A DNA stretch of 64,000 nucleotides from positions 106,116 to 170,115 of the IMG/VR virus record IMGVR_UViG_3300047378_000694. One strand, 5' to 3'. This DNA is from a virus. Position numbers and translations under genes: made by a program. Below, piece after piece: positions 49,257-60,871 of this stretch. Under the pieces are notes generated by a model. That model made no database searches and was not told where the DNA came from. It was given only the letters and a program-made list of their open reading frames with translations. Within the stretch, counting starts at the first letter, position 1. Each line of letters starts with the position of its first letter.

Positions 49257-50270
49257 TTGTTTAAAAAAGCTGCGGTCTTTACAGACATACACTTTGGATT
49301 AAAAGGCAATTCACGTGTTCACAACCAAGATTGTGAGGATTATGTGGATTGGTTTATCCAAACGGCCAAGGAACATGGGTGCGAGACTGCCTTGTTTACT
49401 GGTGATTGGAACCATAATCGCAATAGTTTAAATTTAACTACTATGGATGCTGGGCTTCGGTGTCTTGAGAAGATAGGTGCAGCATTTGATAAGTTTTATA
49501 TGTTTGCAGGTAACCACGATTTGTATTATAAAGATAAACGTGATGTAAAGTCAACTGAGTTTGCTCGACATATTCCTGGTGTTACTGTAATTGAAGACAT
49601 ACTTGTCGAGGATGATGTTGCATTGGTACCGTGGTTAGTAGGCGATGAGTGGAAAAAGATGAAAGACATCCAAGCAAAATACTTGTTTGGACACTTTGAA
49701 CTGCCTAGCTTCTATATGAATGCAATGGTACAGATGCCCGATCACGGAGAACTAAAGAGCGAGCATTTTGTAAATCAAGAGTATGTGTTTAGCGGACACT
49801 TCCACAAACGTCAAAAACAAGGTAAGGTGCATTACATTGGTAATGCATTCCCCCATAACTATGCCGATGCATGGGACGACGATCGCGGTATGATGATACT
49901 TGATAAAGAGAATGATGCAGAACCTGAATACATTAATTGGGTCGATTGCCCTAAGTACCGCACTATTAAGCTATCGCAACTGATTGATGAGAAAGATACA
50001 CTTCTCAAAAGCAGAATGTACCTAAGAGTTACACTTGATTTACCTGTAAGCTACGAAGAAGCAAGTTTTATCAAAGAAACATTTATAAACGATTACGATT
50101 GTAGAGAGATTACACTAATTCCTCACAAACAACTTGAAGAAATTAACACCGAACTTGATATTGCACAGTTTGAAAGTGTAGATCAAATTGTTTCAAACGA
50201 AATACTAGCAATTGACAGTGATAACTTTGACAAAGCAATGCTACTAGATATCTATAACGGATTAGAATGA
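49257..50270 (+). CDS. gp47: Recombination endonuclease subunit (Mre11/SbcD-like)
   Basis: DIHFG, GD, GNHD, GHFE, SGHFH metallophosphoesterase motifs. Confidence 0.92.
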   Translation: MFKKAAVFTDIHFGLKGNSRVHNQDCEDYVDWFIQTAKEHGCETALFTGDWNHNRNSLNLTTMDAGLRCLEKIGAAFDKFYMFAGNHDLYYKDKRDVKSTEFARHIPGVTVIEDILVEDDVALVPWLVGDEWKKMKDIQAKYLFGHFELPSFYMNAMVQMPDHGELKSEHFVNQEYVFSGHFHKRQKQGKVHYIGNAFPHNYADAWDDDRGMMILDKENDAEPEYINWVDCPKYRTIKLSQLIDEKDTLLKSRMYLRVTLDLPVSYEEASFIKETFINDYDCREITLIPHKQLEEINTELDIAQFESVDQIVSNEILAIDSDNFDKAMLLDIYNGLE

Positions 50271-52045
50271 TAAAAATTAAAGACTTAACAGTAAAGAACT
50301 TCATGAGTGTGGGTAATGTTACCCAAGCAGTTGACTTTGACGAAGAGCAACTAACCCTTGTGTTAGGCGAGAACTTGGATCAAGGCGGTGACGATACTGG
50401 ATCACGCAATGGCACTGGTAAAACCACTATCATTAATGCACTATCCTATGCATTATATGGACAGGCTCTTACAAATATCAAACGCAACAACCTTATTAAC
50501 AAAACTAACTCAAAAGGTATGCTTGTTACTCTTAACTTTGAGAAAGCTGGAAATCAATATCGTATTGAACGTGGTAGATCGCCAAACATACTCAAGTTTT
50601 ATGTCAACGAAAACGAACAAATTGATGAATTAGCTGATAACAGCCAAGGCGATAGTCGTAAAACACAGGAATCAATTAAAGACCTGCTAGACATGAGTCA
50701 CGATATGTTTAAACATATTGTTGCGCTCAATACCTACACCGAACCTTTCCTTAGTATGCGGACAAATGACCAAAGAGCTATTATTGAACAGCTTCTTGGT
50801 ATTACGATACTAAGTGAAAAGGCATCATTACTCAAAGACTCGGTCAGACTTACTAAAGATACCATTACCGAAGAAACTTTAAAGATTGAAGCTATACAAA
50901 AAGCAAACGAAGGTATCCAAAGTACTATTACTAACCTTGAAAAAACACAAAGAGCCTGGAAAGCCAAGCAACGTACCGATATTGACAAGCTAACAAGTGC
51001 AATTGAACAACTTGAAAAGTTAGATATCGATAAAGAATTAGATTCACACGACAAATTAGCAAACTGGACCAAGCATAACAATGCTATTTCGTCACTAAAG
51101 AAAGAATTAGCTACATTAGAACCTGCATTGGTACGTGCTGATAAGAGTGTTAGCAAATTAAACAAGGATATTGTTGAATTAAAGGATGCAACGTGCTATA
51201 CTTGCGGACAAGAGCTTCATGCAGACAAAAAAGCTGAAATTGAGTCAAAGAAAGCAAAAGAACTTGAAGATGCAATAGCGTATCAAAAAGAAATTACTCG
51301 AAAAGTAACAGATGTTACTGTTGAACTAGATACAATTGGTGATATTAACGGTAAGCCTACTACATTCTACGAAGCTGCTAAAGAAGCATACGAACATAGA
51401 AACAACGTAGATAACTTAAAGCAAACACTGCTAAGTAAAGAGCAAGAGGCAGACCCATATCAGGCACAAATTAACGATTTAACAAACACAGCACTACAAG
51501 ATATCAACTGGTCAACAGTTAACGAACTTACTAATGTAAAAGAACACCAAGACTTCTTGCTAAAGCTATTAACCAACAAAGATAGCTTCATTAGAAAGAA
51601 AATTATTGATCAGAACCTAGCATATCTTAACAATAGGCTAACATATTACTTAGATAAACTTGGTTTACCACATCAAGTGGTATTCTTAAACGACTTAGCA
51701 GTTGAAATTACACAGCTAGGACAAGATCTTGACTTTGATAACCTGTCACGTGGCGAACGTAATAGGTTAATTCTTGGTCTTTCGTTTGCATTCCGTGATG
51801 TTTGGGAGAGTTTGTATCAAAGTATTAACTTACTGTTCATTGATGAGCTTATTGATAGCGGAATGGACACAGCAGGCGTAGAAAACAGTATAGGCGTACT
51901 TAAAAAGATGACTAGAGAGCGTAATAAGAATATTTTCCTTATCTCACATAAGGATGAACTAGTTGGCAGGGTCAACAATGTTCTAAGAGTGGTAAAGGAA
52001 AATGGGTTCACTAGTTATGCAACAGACATTGACATTGTAGAATGA
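50267..52045 (+). CDS. gp46: Recombination ATPase subunit (Rad50/SbcC-like)
   Basis: KNFMSVGN, Walker A NGTGKTT, CYTC zinc hook, LSRGE signature, LFIDE Walker B, ISH. Confidence 0.93.
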   Translation: MIKIKDLTVKNFMSVGNVTQAVDFDEEQLTLVLGENLDQGGDDTGSRNGTGKTTIINALSYALYGQALTNIKRNNLINKTNSKGMLVTLNFEKAGNQYRIERGRSPNILKFYVNENEQIDELADNSQGDSRKTQESIKDLLDMSHDMFKHIVALNTYTEPFLSMRTNDQRAIIEQLLGITILSEKASLLKDSVRLTKDTITEETLKIEAIQKANEGIQSTITNLEKTQRAWKAKQRTDIDKLTSAIEQLEKLDIDKELDSHDKLANWTKHNNAISSLKKELATLEPALVRADKSVSKLNKDIVELKDATCYTCGQELHADKKAEIESKKAKELEDAIAYQKEITRKVTDVTVELDTIGDINGKPTTFYEAAKEAYEHRNNVDNLKQTLLSKEQEADPYQAQINDLTNTALQDINWSTVNELTNVKEHQDFLLKLLTNKDSFIRKKIIDQNLAYLNNRLTYYLDKLGLPHQVVFLNDLAVEITQLGQDLDFDNLSRGERNRLILGLSFAFRDVWESLYQSINLLFIDELIDSGMDTAGVENSIGVLKKMTRERNKNIFLISHKDELVGRVNNVLRVVKENGFTSYATDIDIVE

Positions 52046-52287
52046 GCGAATTAGACACACATGACAAAATAGTGTTAGCAGTACTTGAATATTTTGAACT
52101 AAACGAAATATTCAACCACAGGCCTGCAGAACTAAAGCGTAGGAAGGTACGTAAAAAGCTATCTGCACTACGTGATTTATGTACTGTAAGACGAGAAGAA
52201 ATACTACAAGAGCATGTTAGGCATGTAAAAGACGGCAGAGCAAAAAATAATCCAAAAAAGGCACGTGAGGCACTGAAGAAGAAGTAA
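52042..52287 (+). CDS. Small basic hypothetical protein (possible nucleic-acid binding)
   Basis: 81 aa, K/R-rich, ATGA-coupled to gp46. Confidence 0.6.
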   Translation: MSELDTHDKIVLAVLEYFELNEIFNHRPAELKRRKVRKKLSALRDLCTVRREEILQEHVRHVKDGRAKNNPKKAREALKKK

Positions 52288-52294
52288 CTACAGT

Positions 52295-52744
52295 ATGAAT
52301 TGGACATACAAAGGTGAAGAAATAACTGAAATACCAGATGAGTACGAAGGATTTGTTTATCTTATTACCAATTTAACTAACAATCAAAAATACATAGGCA
52401 AAAAACTAGCAAAGTTTAAAACTACCAAGCCACCACTTAAAGGCAAAAAGAATAAACGTAGAGGCTACAAAGAAAGTGACTGGAAAACCTATTGGGGATC
52501 CAGTGATAGGCTTAATGCAGACGTAGCCGCACTAGGCGAAGACAAGTTTACAAGAGAAATACTATACCTATGTAAAGGTAGGGGCGAAATGTCCTACATA
52601 GAGGCACGAGAGCAGTTTGACAGGCGAGTACTTGAAACAGATGATTACTACAACGGTATCATTAATGTTAGAGTGGGCGGATCAGACAAACTAAAACAGG
52701 CATTGCTAGAACATCACATACAGGCAAAACATTCCAACACATAA
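52295..52744 (+). CDS. Stand-alone GIY-YIG endonuclease domain protein
   Basis: GFVYLITN....KYIGKK, YWGSS, E in EAREQ, YYN; no C-terminal DNA-binding module. Confidence 0.8.
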   Translation: MNWTYKGEEITEIPDEYEGFVYLITNLTNNQKYIGKKLAKFKTTKPPLKGKKNKRRGYKESDWKTYWGSSDRLNADVAALGEDKFTREILYLCKGRGEMSYIEAREQFDRRVLETDDYYNGIINVRVGGSDKLKQALLEHHIQAKHSNT

Positions 52745-53210
52745 GGTTGGCGGGCCAGAATAAAAATACCGCTGTGGAAAAAGCTCTCGTATAGAAGCAC
52801 ACGTACATATTGATTGACACACCAGAGTGTGGAAGCCACCAAACAAATTGGGCTCACTAGTTGATATAGATTGCATGTTGGCAGTCAAAAAACACAAACA
52901 CAGTACATAAAAACTCTTTAGCAATAGGAACGAAGCAAGAGGTAGCGTAAGCGATGTCGACGTAGGTTGGGAAAGGTCAGAGCCCATTGTACTTTGTGTA
53001 TAAACAATTACCTACTTCCAAGTTCTCGGCTGGATAAGACTCACATGAAGTTTTTTTTGAGAAAGATGGGACCGTAACAGGTTCCGTCTGACTGAAACGA
53101 TCTACATGAAACTTAAACATATCACTTACGTGATATGCTATTATAAATATTATAAATAATAAAAATGTGTAGAGCGATAGCGATACACAGATGAACGTTA
53201 GTTCATCTTG
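52745..53210 (+). ncRNA. Putative structured non-coding element (ncRNA and/or replication origin)
   Basis: Only long intergenic region in the window; many hairpins, several with G-U pairs, and crossing long-range complementarities (see findings). Confidence 0.6.
53142..53158 (+). promoter_or_regulatory. Tandem T4 late promoters TATAAATA
   Basis: TATAAATA at 53142-49 and 53151-58. Confidence 0.6.
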
Positions 53211-53226
53211 ATAATTGAAAGTTATT

Positions 53227-53706
53227 ATGTCATCACCTTTGCTAAGAGCTCTTGTTAAAAAATCAAATGATCTACATAGTTGTTGGAAAACTGGAAACAG
53301 TGGACAGTGTCAAAAGTGTGAGCGTAATCAAGATAATAGTGATGGTTATCAGTTAACAGACTTTGACCATGAAGACTTAAAACTACTTGAAGAGATGATT
53401 GTAGATTATGAATATAATCAAATATCTCACCCAAAAAAAGTTACTGCTATCTACAACGGAGAATTTACACTTCCGGTTGGAGCAAAATCGTCTGATACAA
53501 CTCGACAACCAAGAATTGTTTGGGTGCTAGATCGAACTATTGGTAATGCAATTATATCTGGCAAAGTTATACAGGCAGCAAACACTTTAGGATGGGCAAG
53601 CACTTGTGAATCAAAAGATGATAAAATATTAATTGGTCTTGGATTTCGCGATAGAGGCGGTTCAGAAGCCTATGACGAAGCATTTGTCAAACAGATATAC
53701 AAGTAA
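53227..53706 (+). CDS. Hypothetical protein (start 53227 ATG or 53215 TTG)
   Basis: ORF with N-terminal H.C......C..C; no family recognised. Confidence 0.5.
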   Translation: MSSPLLRALVKKSNDLHSCWKTGNSGQCQKCERNQDNSDGYQLTDFDHEDLKLLEEMIVDYEYNQISHPKKVTAIYNGEFTLPVGAKSSDTTRQPRIVWVLDRTIGNAIISGKVIQAANTLGWASTCESKDDKILIGLGFRDRGGSEAYDEAFVKQIYK

Positions 53707-59840: not shown

Positions 59841-59848
59841 ATAATTAC

Positions 59849-60100
59849 ATGATACTAAGAGAGCTATATTATTTTGATAAACAAACAATGGAACCTCAAG
59901 AAGACCAGAGGTATGTTTCTGATGACGATGAAACACCAATTTCAATCGATGATACTCGAAAAACACGATTAACTCTTAAAGACATCAATCGAGCACGTAG
60001 GGCGGACGATGCTCATAGAAAAGAATCTGAAAATGATTTATTATACATTAGGGCAATGTATGGAATAGCTGCTCAAGGCGGTGAAGAAGCTATAGCATAG
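59849..60100 (+). CDS. Small head-module protein
   Basis: DTRKTRLTL..IN..R...MYG; TAAATA 5 nt before the ATG. Confidence 0.65.
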   Translation: MILRELYYFDKQTMEPQEDQRYVSDDDETPISIDDTRKTRLTLKDINRARRADDAHRKESENDLLYIRAMYGIAAQGGEEAIA

Positions 60101-60109
60101 GAGTAAATT

Positions 60110-60871
60110 TTGCCCAAAATTTTTATTCCTGGTGAAACTAAAGCCCAACGGAAAGCTCGAAAGCGTGAAGAGAAAGCAGCTCACAATCAGCGACTTAAAG
60201 TTGCACAAAGAAGTGTACTTCCACCAAAACCAAAACCAGCTCCCGACAGCCCGGGCCCAAATGATCAAATCAAAAGAAGCGACATTGTTTTTGTTTTAGG
60301 CAATGGAACTAGCCGAAAACCAGTCAAATCAGAGGAATTGCGAGCGCACGGAACTATCTATGGCTGTAATGCATTATTTAGAGAGTTTATTCCTGATTAC
60401 TTGATAGCAGTTGATACTAAAATGATTAGAGAGATATCAACTGCTGGGTATCAGCACCATCATCCAGTTTGGACAAATCCTAACAAATACACTAGATCTG
60501 TTGAAAAATTAAACCTTTTTAATCCAAATTTAGGTTGGAGTAGTGGACCAACTGCACTTAACTTTGCAAGCAATCAGTTCCCTAAAGAGGTGTATATTTT
60601 AGGCTTTGATTATCAAGGAATTGGAAGAAAGAACGAATTAGTAAACAATGTGTATGCTGGTACCGAAAACTACAAAAAGCTACATGATAGAGCAACATAC
60701 TTTGGAAACTGGGAAAGACAAACATCTACAGTAATTCAAAAAAATCCTAGAATTAGATATATAAGAGTAGTTGAAGTTGAACCGTACTTTGTACCAAATT
60801 CATTAGAAGGACATGATAATCTTAGACATATTACTGTAGAAAAGTTTAAACAAAAGTTCAAATTATCATAA
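60110..60871 (+). CDS. Rossmann-like sugar/nucleotide transferase-like protein (Maf/DUF115/sialyltransferase-like)
   Basis: VLGNGTSR, YGCNAL.R, PDYLIAVD, WSSGPTA, YILGFD; basic Pro-rich N-terminal arm. Confidence 0.5.
   Translation: MPKIFIPGETKAQRKARKREEKAAHNQRLKVAQRSVLPPKPKPAPDSPGPNDQIKRSDIVFVLGNGTSRKPVKSEELRAHGTIYGCNALFREFIPDYLIAVDTKMIREISTAGYQHHHPVWTNPNKYTRSVEKLNLFNPNLGWSSGPTALNFASNQFPKEVYILGFDYQGIGRKNELVNNVYAGTENYKKLHDRATYFGNWERQTSTVIQKNPRIRYIRVVEVEPYFVPNSLEGHDNLRHITVEKFKQKFKLS

Follow-up and report, generated by a model that had tools for sequence, protein, structure and literature searches.

The locus considered here raises a double question: does the long non-coding stretch that directly follows a minimal GIY-YIG nuclease gene in a viral DNA encode a structured RNA and, if so, does this RNA act together with the nuclease? 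The DNA analysed (hereafter the window, 64,000 nucleotides) comprises positions 106,116 to 170,115 of the IMG/VR record IMGVR_UViG_3300047378_000694 and represents the 3' part of that 170-kb record, for which CheckV gives a completeness of 48%. The original prediction, made from the letters of this one sequence, had proposed that the RNA may bind, guide or be processed by the nuclease, and had named a replication-primer RNA as a secondary idea. Covariation among relatives shows that window positions 52745-53112 encode a pseudoknotted + strand RNA of ~370 nt with 12 helices, in which the 5' domain is modular, the core near-invariant and the 3' domain constant. With regard to its role we infer that the secondary idea, a replication-primer-like RNA, is the one to be favoured: the RNA and the DNA elements behind it might work in cis as a portable R-loop or origin-like module, a reading to which we assign a probability of roughly 0.38.

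Comparative evidence for a pseudoknotted RNA

As had been noticed, a long non-coding stretch starts at the stop codon of the GIY-YIG gene, and no other part of the window extends as far as 52745-53226 without a plausible open reading frame (ORF). A longer gap between ORFs of at least 100 aa exists (59841-60421), but it is occupied by smaller or TTG-start ORFs. Coding potential after the nuclease gene was ruled out by indels that are not multiples of three and by ORFs that are not conserved, whereas a decayed C-terminal domain of the nuclease was ruled out by the base-pair covariation found there and by the 148-aa norm of the nuclease family.

The stretch had attracted attention by its richness in pairing. 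Its single-sequence folding energy was no better than chance in comparison with shuffled sequences (z = -0.92 for the + strand and +1.97 for the - strand), so that the stems picked by eye did not alone prove a structure, and folding energy was discarded as evidence for or against it. The structure is nevertheless real, as covariation in 26 relatives demonstrates. Close relatives of the nuclease are encoded by more than 598 IMG/VR contigs. In these, the 370-470 nt behind the nuclease gene are 75-91% identical to the window, with 70-77% identity for the adjacent gp46 gene of the same relatives, and the conservation profile consists of near-invariant blocks between variable loops, the alignments containing compensatory changes. 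In alignment A2 (26 distinct relatives, 67 proposed pairs, with controls in which the 3' partners were slid by 1-3 columns) 96.6% of pair cells were paired versus 35-39% in the slid controls, and changes on both sides were seen in 19 pairs and 116 cells versus 1-4 pairs and 2-15 cells; none of 500 shuffles matched the observed pairing values. The core covariance model gave a similar pairing result. About 13.6% of paired cells in A2 are G·U on the + strand, which indicates that RNA and nuclease gene share their reading direction, and the alternation of G·U, A-U and G-C in helix H12 likewise indicates reading from the + strand. Judged from these alignments, the covariation support of the RNA equals that of accepted Rfam families. 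Its parts are as follows.

52745..52886, + strand: 5' domain of the RNA, with hairpins H1, H2, H3 and H5 and the long-range helix H4 around a replaceable module
52749-53/52769-73, + strand: hairpin H1 of the 5' domain
52774-76/52800-02, + strand: hairpin H2 of the 5' domain
52783-88/52794-98, + strand: hairpin H3 of the 5' domain
52807-15/52859-67, + strand: long-range helix H4, enclosing the replaceable module 52816-58
52869-74/52881-86, + strand: hairpin H5 of the 5' domain
52892..53020, + strand: pseudoknotted core, with H6, H7, H8 and H9
52902-07/52988-93, + strand: core helix H6 (AGTACA/TGTACT), with a distal extension
52914-18/52937-41, + strand: core helix H7
52943-54, + strand: H8, a GNRA-capped hairpin and variable insertion site
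52962-67/53010-15, + strand: H9 (GTAGGT/ACCTAC), crossing H6
53024..53062, + strand: hairpin H10/H11, whose 13-nt loop presents box 1
53043..53049, + strand: box 1, ACATGAA, a variable 7-nt segment in the loop of hairpin H10
53064..53089, + strand: H12, a 10-bp G+C-rich hairpin in which 98% of cells pair
53090..53112, + strand: 3' tail with box 2 and a tentative helix H0 (GACU with 5' GGUU)
53104..53110, + strand: box 2, ACATGAA, in the 3' tail

Compensatory changes are present in H2, H3, H4 and H5, and the module enclosed by H4 is swapped for other hairpins in sublineages. All cells of H6 and H7 pair in A2, with 5-7 double changes per pair, and 52955-52987 is near-invariant. H9, invariant in the close family, has compensatory changes in two separate lineages (L119-type and L045-type); since it covaries and crosses H6, the pseudoknot is real. 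The stem of H10/H11 covaries as well (e.g., from TCTCG/TGAGA to TCTTG/CAAGA), its inner stem is variable, and the same architecture recurs in the diverged type C RNAs described below. The tentative H0 pairs in 100% of A2 cells with one-sided change, and is broken in L098, L201 and L119.

Seven of the nine stems first picked out by eye hold in the relatives, namely TGGCGG/CCGCTG, GATTGC/GCAGTC, CTCTT/AAGAG, AGTACA/TGTACT and the 10-bp hairpin at 53064-89, together with CACAC/GTGTG within the sublineage possessing that module and GTAGGT/ACCTAC through compensatory changes in L119, L332-334 and L045-type sequences. The remaining two had to be given up: half of the family is without the 5' arm of TGGGCTC/GAGCCCA, GAGCCCA is invariant and changes break the pairing, and TGGAA/TTCCA has 8-11 broken cells with no compensation, one of its columns covarying perfectly within another helix. 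A pseudoknot had been foreseen from the crossing of TGGGCTC/GAGCCCA with GTAGGT/ACCTAC; it exists, but it is formed by AGTACA/TGTACT and GTAGGT/ACCTAC.

The loop of H8 (52944-52953; e.g., in L016, L038, L040 and L053) is an insertion hot spot for A+T-rich palindromic inserts of 60-180 nt, families of which recur at the analogous site of type C RNAs (L234, L240), sometimes inverted. By their sequence these inserts look like miniature mobile hairpin elements.

No known RNA family accounts for this structure. A search of the whole window with Rfam 15 (4227 models, including group I and II introns, RNase P, tmRNA, 6S, HEARO, IS605-orfB, GOLLD, ROOL, OLE and raiA) gave no hits at the gathering score, in agreement with the earlier remark that no likeness to tmRNA, RNase P or group I/II introns could be recognised. 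Lowering the threshold to E <=10 on 52600-53350 produced a single Acido-Lenti-1 match of sub-threshold score, which lies at 53118-53150 and not in the RNA body. The type B and type C loci gave no relevant Rfam hits, ARAGORN found no tRNA or tmRNA genes in the window, and the RNA sequence was not found in cultured phage records. Likenesses seen by eye to RNase P (GGGAAAGGUC versus the CR-I motif) and to tmRNA or tRNA received no model support. The RNA would accordingly represent a new, previously undescribed family by sequence and structure comparison.

At least three structural types of the RNA are distributed over several hundred IMG/VR contigs from uncultured marine phages, with one copy per genome. 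Type A is that of the window, type B combines another 5' domain with the same core, and type C, its 5' domain likewise different, has a strongly diverged core with the same 3' domain; a search with nothing but a type C word brought up at least 120 more contigs. The core covariance model R1 (181 positions) finds exactly one copy per long contig, none in phage Melnitz and no match in the PA5oct locus (NC_071039.1 69650-77398). The nearest cultured relatives through gp46 are PA5oct-type jumbo Pseudomonas phages (48% identity), so that the source phage would be a T4-related jumbo myophage from marine metagenomes. Phages of a different type also carry the RNA, there upstream of the terminases, flanked by unrelated ORFs on one side and terS/terL on the other and with no adjacent nuclease; these copies (L113, L119, L332-334) keep the core, the matched boxes and the downstream DNA elements, and L452 provides a further nuclease-free context. 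An HNH endonuclease gene (L113:5023-5424) lies ~1.3 kb upstream of the nuclease-free RNA of L113, and L119-type relatives are without it. For the 166-aa protein encoded upstream of the RNA in L113, the ESM Atlas yielded no usable match.

A 17-mer scan of prokaryote genomes gave chance-level hits, only 3 of them real and all of these phage contigs binned into metagenome-assembled genomes. Contigs with gp46, GIY-YIG and RNA are filed there as L287 (Crocinitomicaceae) and as L325 and L329 (Neomarinimicrobiota RS350; 335 kb and 153 kb). They are most likely misbinned jumbo-phage contigs, and the 335-kb contig may represent nearly the whole genome of a member of the group. If transcript data confirm it, the RNA family is large, structured and abundant, and its carriers are uncultured jumbo myophages of marine origin together with at least one further type of phage.

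Matched boxes, DNA hairpins and a proposed origin-like module

The double occurrence of ACATGAA had been pointed out before, and both copies proved to be real and to co-vary as direct repeats. The two boxes agree in 88 of the 89 distinct sequences of types A and B, across ten different 7-mers. Type C adds eleven further variants, also matched, with all but 8 of 120 pattern hits identical and with at least 3 chance matches outside the RNA among those 8. Overall at least 20 variants exist, both copies being nearly always the same variant, and the box identity extends to nuclease-free loci. Pairing of box 1 with box 2 was ruled out by variants such as GTATGAA, which abolish the CAUG palindrome; a target-site duplication by the presence of the module between the boxes in every sequence and by an identity that survives at least 20 changes; and a start codon or micro-ORF by several variants without AUG.

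The region from -1100 to +700 around the core contains no 7-mer complementary to the box, nor was a co-varying trans site found in five contigs of 31-170 kb. Identity selected without a complementary RNA partner would be expected if both boxes meet the same complementary strand, for which the simplest candidate is the template DNA of the sister box; alternatively, it is possibly an antisense transcript. Parallel co-variation of two direct-repeat boxes is an unusual signature, and it points to an RNA pairing with its own template DNA.

The RNA belongs to a unit of ~470 nt that ends at 53207 and contains, downstream of box 2, an A+T-rich tract and perfect mini-hairpins of DNA type.

53118..53137, + strand: H13, an A+T-rich hairpin of 8-9 bp with perfect pairing, immediately behind box 2, conserved in relatives
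53138..53166, unstranded: A+T-rich spacer with two T4-type late-promoter words TATAAATA at 53142-49 and 53151-58
53167..53207, unstranded: conserved GAGCG..AGCGA box closed by GTGT/ACAC (53167-88), then H15; travels with the RNA
53190-96/53201-07, unstranded: hairpin H15 with C-GNA-G or C-GNNA-G loops, in 47 distinct sequences

H13 is kept in all 59 distinct sequences, essentially without G·U, and H15 pairs perfectly in its 47 distinct versions with 1.3% G·U among 384 pairs versus ~13.6% in the RNA helices. As their pairing is kept without G·U, both hairpins would matter as DNA or on both strands, the near-absence of this pair being the signature of hairpins that act in such a way. H13 could be either the RNA 3' end or a DNA hairpin. 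A consensus scan of the + strand (52200-53400) finds no intrinsic terminator at the RNA 3' end, where H13 is A+T-rich and is followed by CTATTAT, with no G+C-rich stem and T-run. Types A, B and C all keep the GAGCG..AGCGA box, which has an altered form in L113 and L119. In 40-nt segments the A+T tract peaks at 88% A+T, within the top 0.13% of the 170-kb record. The tandem TATAAATA words precede ORF 53215-53706, the relatives of which are found in only four contigs, and genes downstream of the unit are thus highly variable.

In ColE1, a persistent hybrid arises near the origin when an element located upstream in RNA II pairs with the template DNA (PMC4555960). In the phage unit an element able to pair with the template near the RNA 3' region would be provided by the box identity, upheld over at least 20 variants: as the two boxes share one sequence, the loop with box 1 is the complement of the template strand at box 2. 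We propose that box 1, presented in its loop, may pair with the template DNA strand of box 2 and anchor the transcript on its own locus; the A+T tract would then melt, and the C-GNA-G hairpins would form on the displaced strand, where they might serve as priming or loading signals. If this is true, replication start in T4-related phages outside the enterobacterial models becomes testable, as does the existence of structured primer or R-loop RNAs outside plasmids.

Several points weigh against the proposed origin-like module. The match comprises only 7 nt and partial flanks, which would give a short hybrid, and the invariant pseudoknotted core of a 370-nt RNA is more elaborate than the known origin transcripts of T4-type phages, for which, to our knowledge, ColE1-type primers are not known. 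H13 and H15 could be strong bidirectional terminators, and the presence of the TATAAATA words shows that late transcription, too, makes use of the A+T tract. In two contigs the minimum of the cumulative GC skew is displaced from the element by 4-9 kb, although this minimum probably follows gene orientation. Finally, for the adjacency of RNA and nuclease in ~210 of ~215 readable loci this model offers no explanation other than shared descent.

The alternative that survives best, although we consider it unlikely, is a trans-acting regulatory or decoy RNA, in which a structured scaffold would carry two identical single-stranded boxes as duplicate seeds for one phage or host RNA, the nuclease being unrelated. 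Box 2 lies directly 5' of a terminal hairpin, the classic seed position of bacterial small RNAs (sRNAs), and several known sRNAs carry repeated identical seed motifs. Portability between unrelated phages would suit a host-directed tool, and the differences of the box between lineages are what a co-evolving target demands. However, no co-varying complementary site was present in the 30-170 kb of five contigs, a 370-nt RNA with an invariant pseudoknotted core far exceeds seed-type sRNAs, and H13 has no U-run behind it and was not recognised as a terminator. Nor does this reading explain the DNA-type hairpins accompanying the RNA.

The nuclease gene beside the RNA

The gene order in the window is gp47-like (49257-50270) and gp46-like (50267-52045), which are recombination genes of the SbcCD type, then an 81-aa ORF and the nuclease gene:

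52295..52744, + strand: stand-alone GIY-YIG nuclease gene, 149 aa, SegE-type catalytic domain only (Pfam PF19835, phrog_447)

The description of its product as a 149-aa GIY-YIG nuclease with a catalytic domain only was accurate: the protein matches Pfam SegE_GIY-YIG (PF19835) with E 1.7e-35, model positions 1-123 being covered by residues 3-123. A catalytic domain without extra parts appears to be the norm for this family, as the best PHROG profile (phrog_447) has 148 aa. The basic insertion that had been singled out is probably a family feature and not special to this protein, since it lies inside residues 3-123, as judged from the matched residue span. The protein has the GIY-YIG catalytic domain of Seg-type enzymes over the full model; a Seg-type C-terminal DNA-binding domain was not found in its 149 aa, where only residues 3-123 match, and longer relatives were not searched for. 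PDB sequence searches with the GIY-YIG and PD-(D/E)XK nucleases gave no match. PHROGs gives the phrog_447 family the label 'NAD synthetase', as does one GenBank record of phage S-SRM01 (MW015081.1), the RefSeq copy of the same phage (NC_070963.1) saying 'homing endonuclease'; this is probably a propagated annotation error.

In the clade of the window, RNA and nuclease are nearly inseparable: of the 107 loci identified by the RNA core alone, 105 have the GIY-YIG gene just upstream, and the gene is also present in 73 of the 74 that gp46 identified. Elsewhere the linkage is not obligate. A small nuclease gene stands directly upstream of the RNA in ~210 of ~215 readable loci, and the RNA begins at the nuclease stop codon or within ~40 nt of it. 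In distant relatives (gp46 50-69% identical) the same slot holds a PD-(D/E)XK nuclease of 168-185 aa (PF24608, E 1e-23 to 1e-29), as at L437:717-1226, L347:2614-3126, L464:2511-3029 and ~20 more loci, in the same orientation and at the same distance to the RNA core. Type C RNAs follow a GIY-YIG gene in 79 loci and a PD-(D/E)XK gene in ~25. Phage Melnitz has a nuclease of the phrog_447 family beside nrdB and no RNA. All nuclease-linked loci come from one related myophage group, so that the high counts represent few independent events. A subgroup (L086:4129-4437, L104:4380-4658, L128, L152) carries an extra ORF of 87-104 aa between nuclease gene and RNA, with a weak QSregVF_b-like motif (PF12843, below the cut-off).

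The central claim of the original prediction, that the RNA may bind, guide or be processed by this nuclease, is not supported by these distributions. As a rival reading it would have the RNA scaffold, guide or be processed by an upstream enzyme without a DNA-binding domain, the variable box setting its specificity. The tight adjacency, the short distance to the stop codon, a slot that retains 'a nuclease' of either of two unrelated folds, and a nuclease reduced to its catalytic domain all speak for it, as does the joint nuclease truncation and RNA core deletion in L243 (L243:4203-4719; residues 66-149 of the GIY-YIG protein match, the RNA is deleted from H8 to the H9 3' strand), a single case. 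However, one RNA type with two unrelated nuclease folds fits poorly to a specific ribonucleoprotein, the RNA with its matched boxes persists in other phages without an adjacent nuclease, the nuclease family is found without the RNA, and the linked loci trace back to the few events mentioned. The sole hypervariable segment at a conserved position, where a guide-like part had been hoped for, is the 7-nt box; being duplicated inside the unit and equal to the element's own DNA, it would imply self-targeting, and it is shorter than the guide of at least ~16 nt of OMEGA-type RNAs. Stand-alone GIY-YIG and PD-(D/E)XK enzymes such as T4 EndoII, Slx1 and Hjc work without RNA. We therefore regard this reading as improbable. 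A variant of it, decidedly improbable too, makes the RNA the constant partner of interchangeable minimal nucleases (GIY-YIG or PD-(D/E)XK), with target recognition through the matched 7-nt boxes: the RNA would open its own or a competitor's locus as an R-loop, and the nuclease would then cut. If true, it would constitute an RNA-programmed nuclease principle unrelated to Cas, IscB and TnpB.

Judged from its distribution, the nuclease link is one of synteny and not of partnership. The GIY-YIG protein is probably not an RNA-guided enzyme, and in the gp47-gp46 cluster it is likely to be a recombination or branch-cutting enzyme, or else a fixed Seg-type homing nuclease. RusA, PD-(D/E)XK (Hjc-type) and GIY-YIG (Slx1-type) folds all include junction-cutting enzymes, and PA5oct (L467), the closest cultured relative by gp46, has a RusA-like Holliday-junction resolvase two genes from SbcCD, which makes non-orthologous displacement of a recombination nuclease in this slot plausible. 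The gene order of PA5oct is late sigma factor, SbcD, SbcC, a structural gene and the RusA-like resolvase, followed by ~1.4 kb of tiny annotated ORFs. A minimal nuclease adjoining a big RNA is, in short, insufficient to call an RNA-guided system where the slot takes unrelated folds and the RNA persists without them.

The nuclease gene is under purifying selection (median pN 0.08 versus pS 0.46). Differences at 4-fold sites amount to 0.33 in the nuclease cassette versus 0.52 in gp46, the nuclease being less diverged in 47 of 51 unbiased loci, whereas in the closest relatives the order is reversed and the nuclease is more diverged than gp46. Dozens of contigs (L005-L010, L027, L030, L036, L046, L049, L052, L068, L208-L279) end inside the nuclease gene or at ~52885-52945, which is consistent with assembly breaks in a cassette common to co-occurring strains with divergent flanks and a polymorphic H8 insert. 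Taken together, these sequence patterns show a cassette that recombines between lineages. With regard to the sporadic presence and lateral spread of homing nucleases, the gene is retained in 73 of the 74 gp46-selected loci, and its 4-fold sites point to exchange.

Least probable of all is a selfish intron-like or ribozyme element, a catalytic RNA with interchangeable homing-endonuclease ORFs that the nuclease would spread by double-strand-break repair. It is suggested by RNAs with a GIY-YIG, a PD-(D/E)XK or no ORF, as in mobile introns, by the H6-H7-H8-H9-H6'-H9' topology, which equals P3-P4/6-P7-P3'-P7' of group I introns and is accompanied by GNRA loops and an A-rich junction, and by the lower silent-site divergence of the cassette, the reversed order in close relatives and the many contig breaks. 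Against it, no group I, group II or ribozyme model of Rfam matches even at E <=10, no gene is interrupted and no exons are conserved (neighbouring ORFs are complete, and the downstream gene and flanks vary between loci and phage types), the H6/H9 crossing has the strand order of a group I core but no P8 equivalent and no internal guide complementary to the boxes, the candidate G at box position 5 is not conserved and cannot be the terminal G, and the nuclease is too regularly present to be sporadic.

Comparison with known systems

Among the known systems, ColE1 RNA II offers the closest parallel to the proposed module. In ColE1 the pairing involves a G-run and a C-run, and primosome sites lie downstream. 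Shared with the phage unit are a long, highly structured sense-strand RNA, an upstream element fit to pair with the template near the RNA 3' region, stable hairpins downstream that would form on the displaced strand, and the character of a portable module. However, there is no homology in sequence or structure, a counterpart of the antisense RNA I was not seen (no search aimed at it was made), the phage pairing element is a hypervariable 7-mer and not a G-run, the host is a jumbo T4-related phage and not a plasmid, and priming in the phage is putative. The R-loop origins of T4, ori(uvsY) and ori(34), resemble the unit in their T4-related setting and in a transcript followed by an easily melted A+T tract, and the phage unit adjoins gp46/gp47. 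They differ in that the T4 transcripts have no known conserved, covarying and pseudoknotted 370-nt body, while no middle-promoter signal was identified at the phage unit.

The RNAs of HEARO/IscB (omegaRNA) and TnpB (reRNA) likewise are large structured RNAs adjoining a compact nuclease gene in a mobile-looking cassette. OMEGA RNAs, however, are obligately tied to one nuclease family and carry a guide of at least ~16 nt reading into flanking DNA, whereas the phage RNA occurs with two unrelated folds or with none (L113, L119, L332-334, L452), its 7-nt box is duplicated inside the unit, and it matches neither the HEARO nor the IS605 motif of Rfam. Mobile group I introns such as T4 td with I-TevI combine a phage-borne GIY-YIG ORF with a pseudoknotted RNA and GNRA loops, the family of the ORF being variable or the ORF absent; in contrast, the phage RNA interrupts no gene, is not matched by any group I model, lacks both a guide sequence and a terminal G, and is preceded by its ORF, which does not lie inside an RNA loop.

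GOLLD and ROOL are also large, intricately folded phage RNAs from metagenomes, with unknown biochemical function. Both are in Rfam and neither matches; the phage RNA is smaller and has matched boxes and an attached segment of DNA hairpins. T4 SegB in the tRNA cluster is a Seg-type GIY-YIG gene beside structural RNA genes, and silent-site data suggest an exchange of the phage nuclease and RNA cassette between lineages. Unlike SegB, the phage protein is without a C-terminal DNA-binding part and is near-universal in its clade, not sporadic. Overall, the interest of the locus lies in its RNA more than in a nuclease system: the RNA is modular, carries matched boxes and is situated in a cassette that recombines, next to a nuclease gene that can be exchanged.

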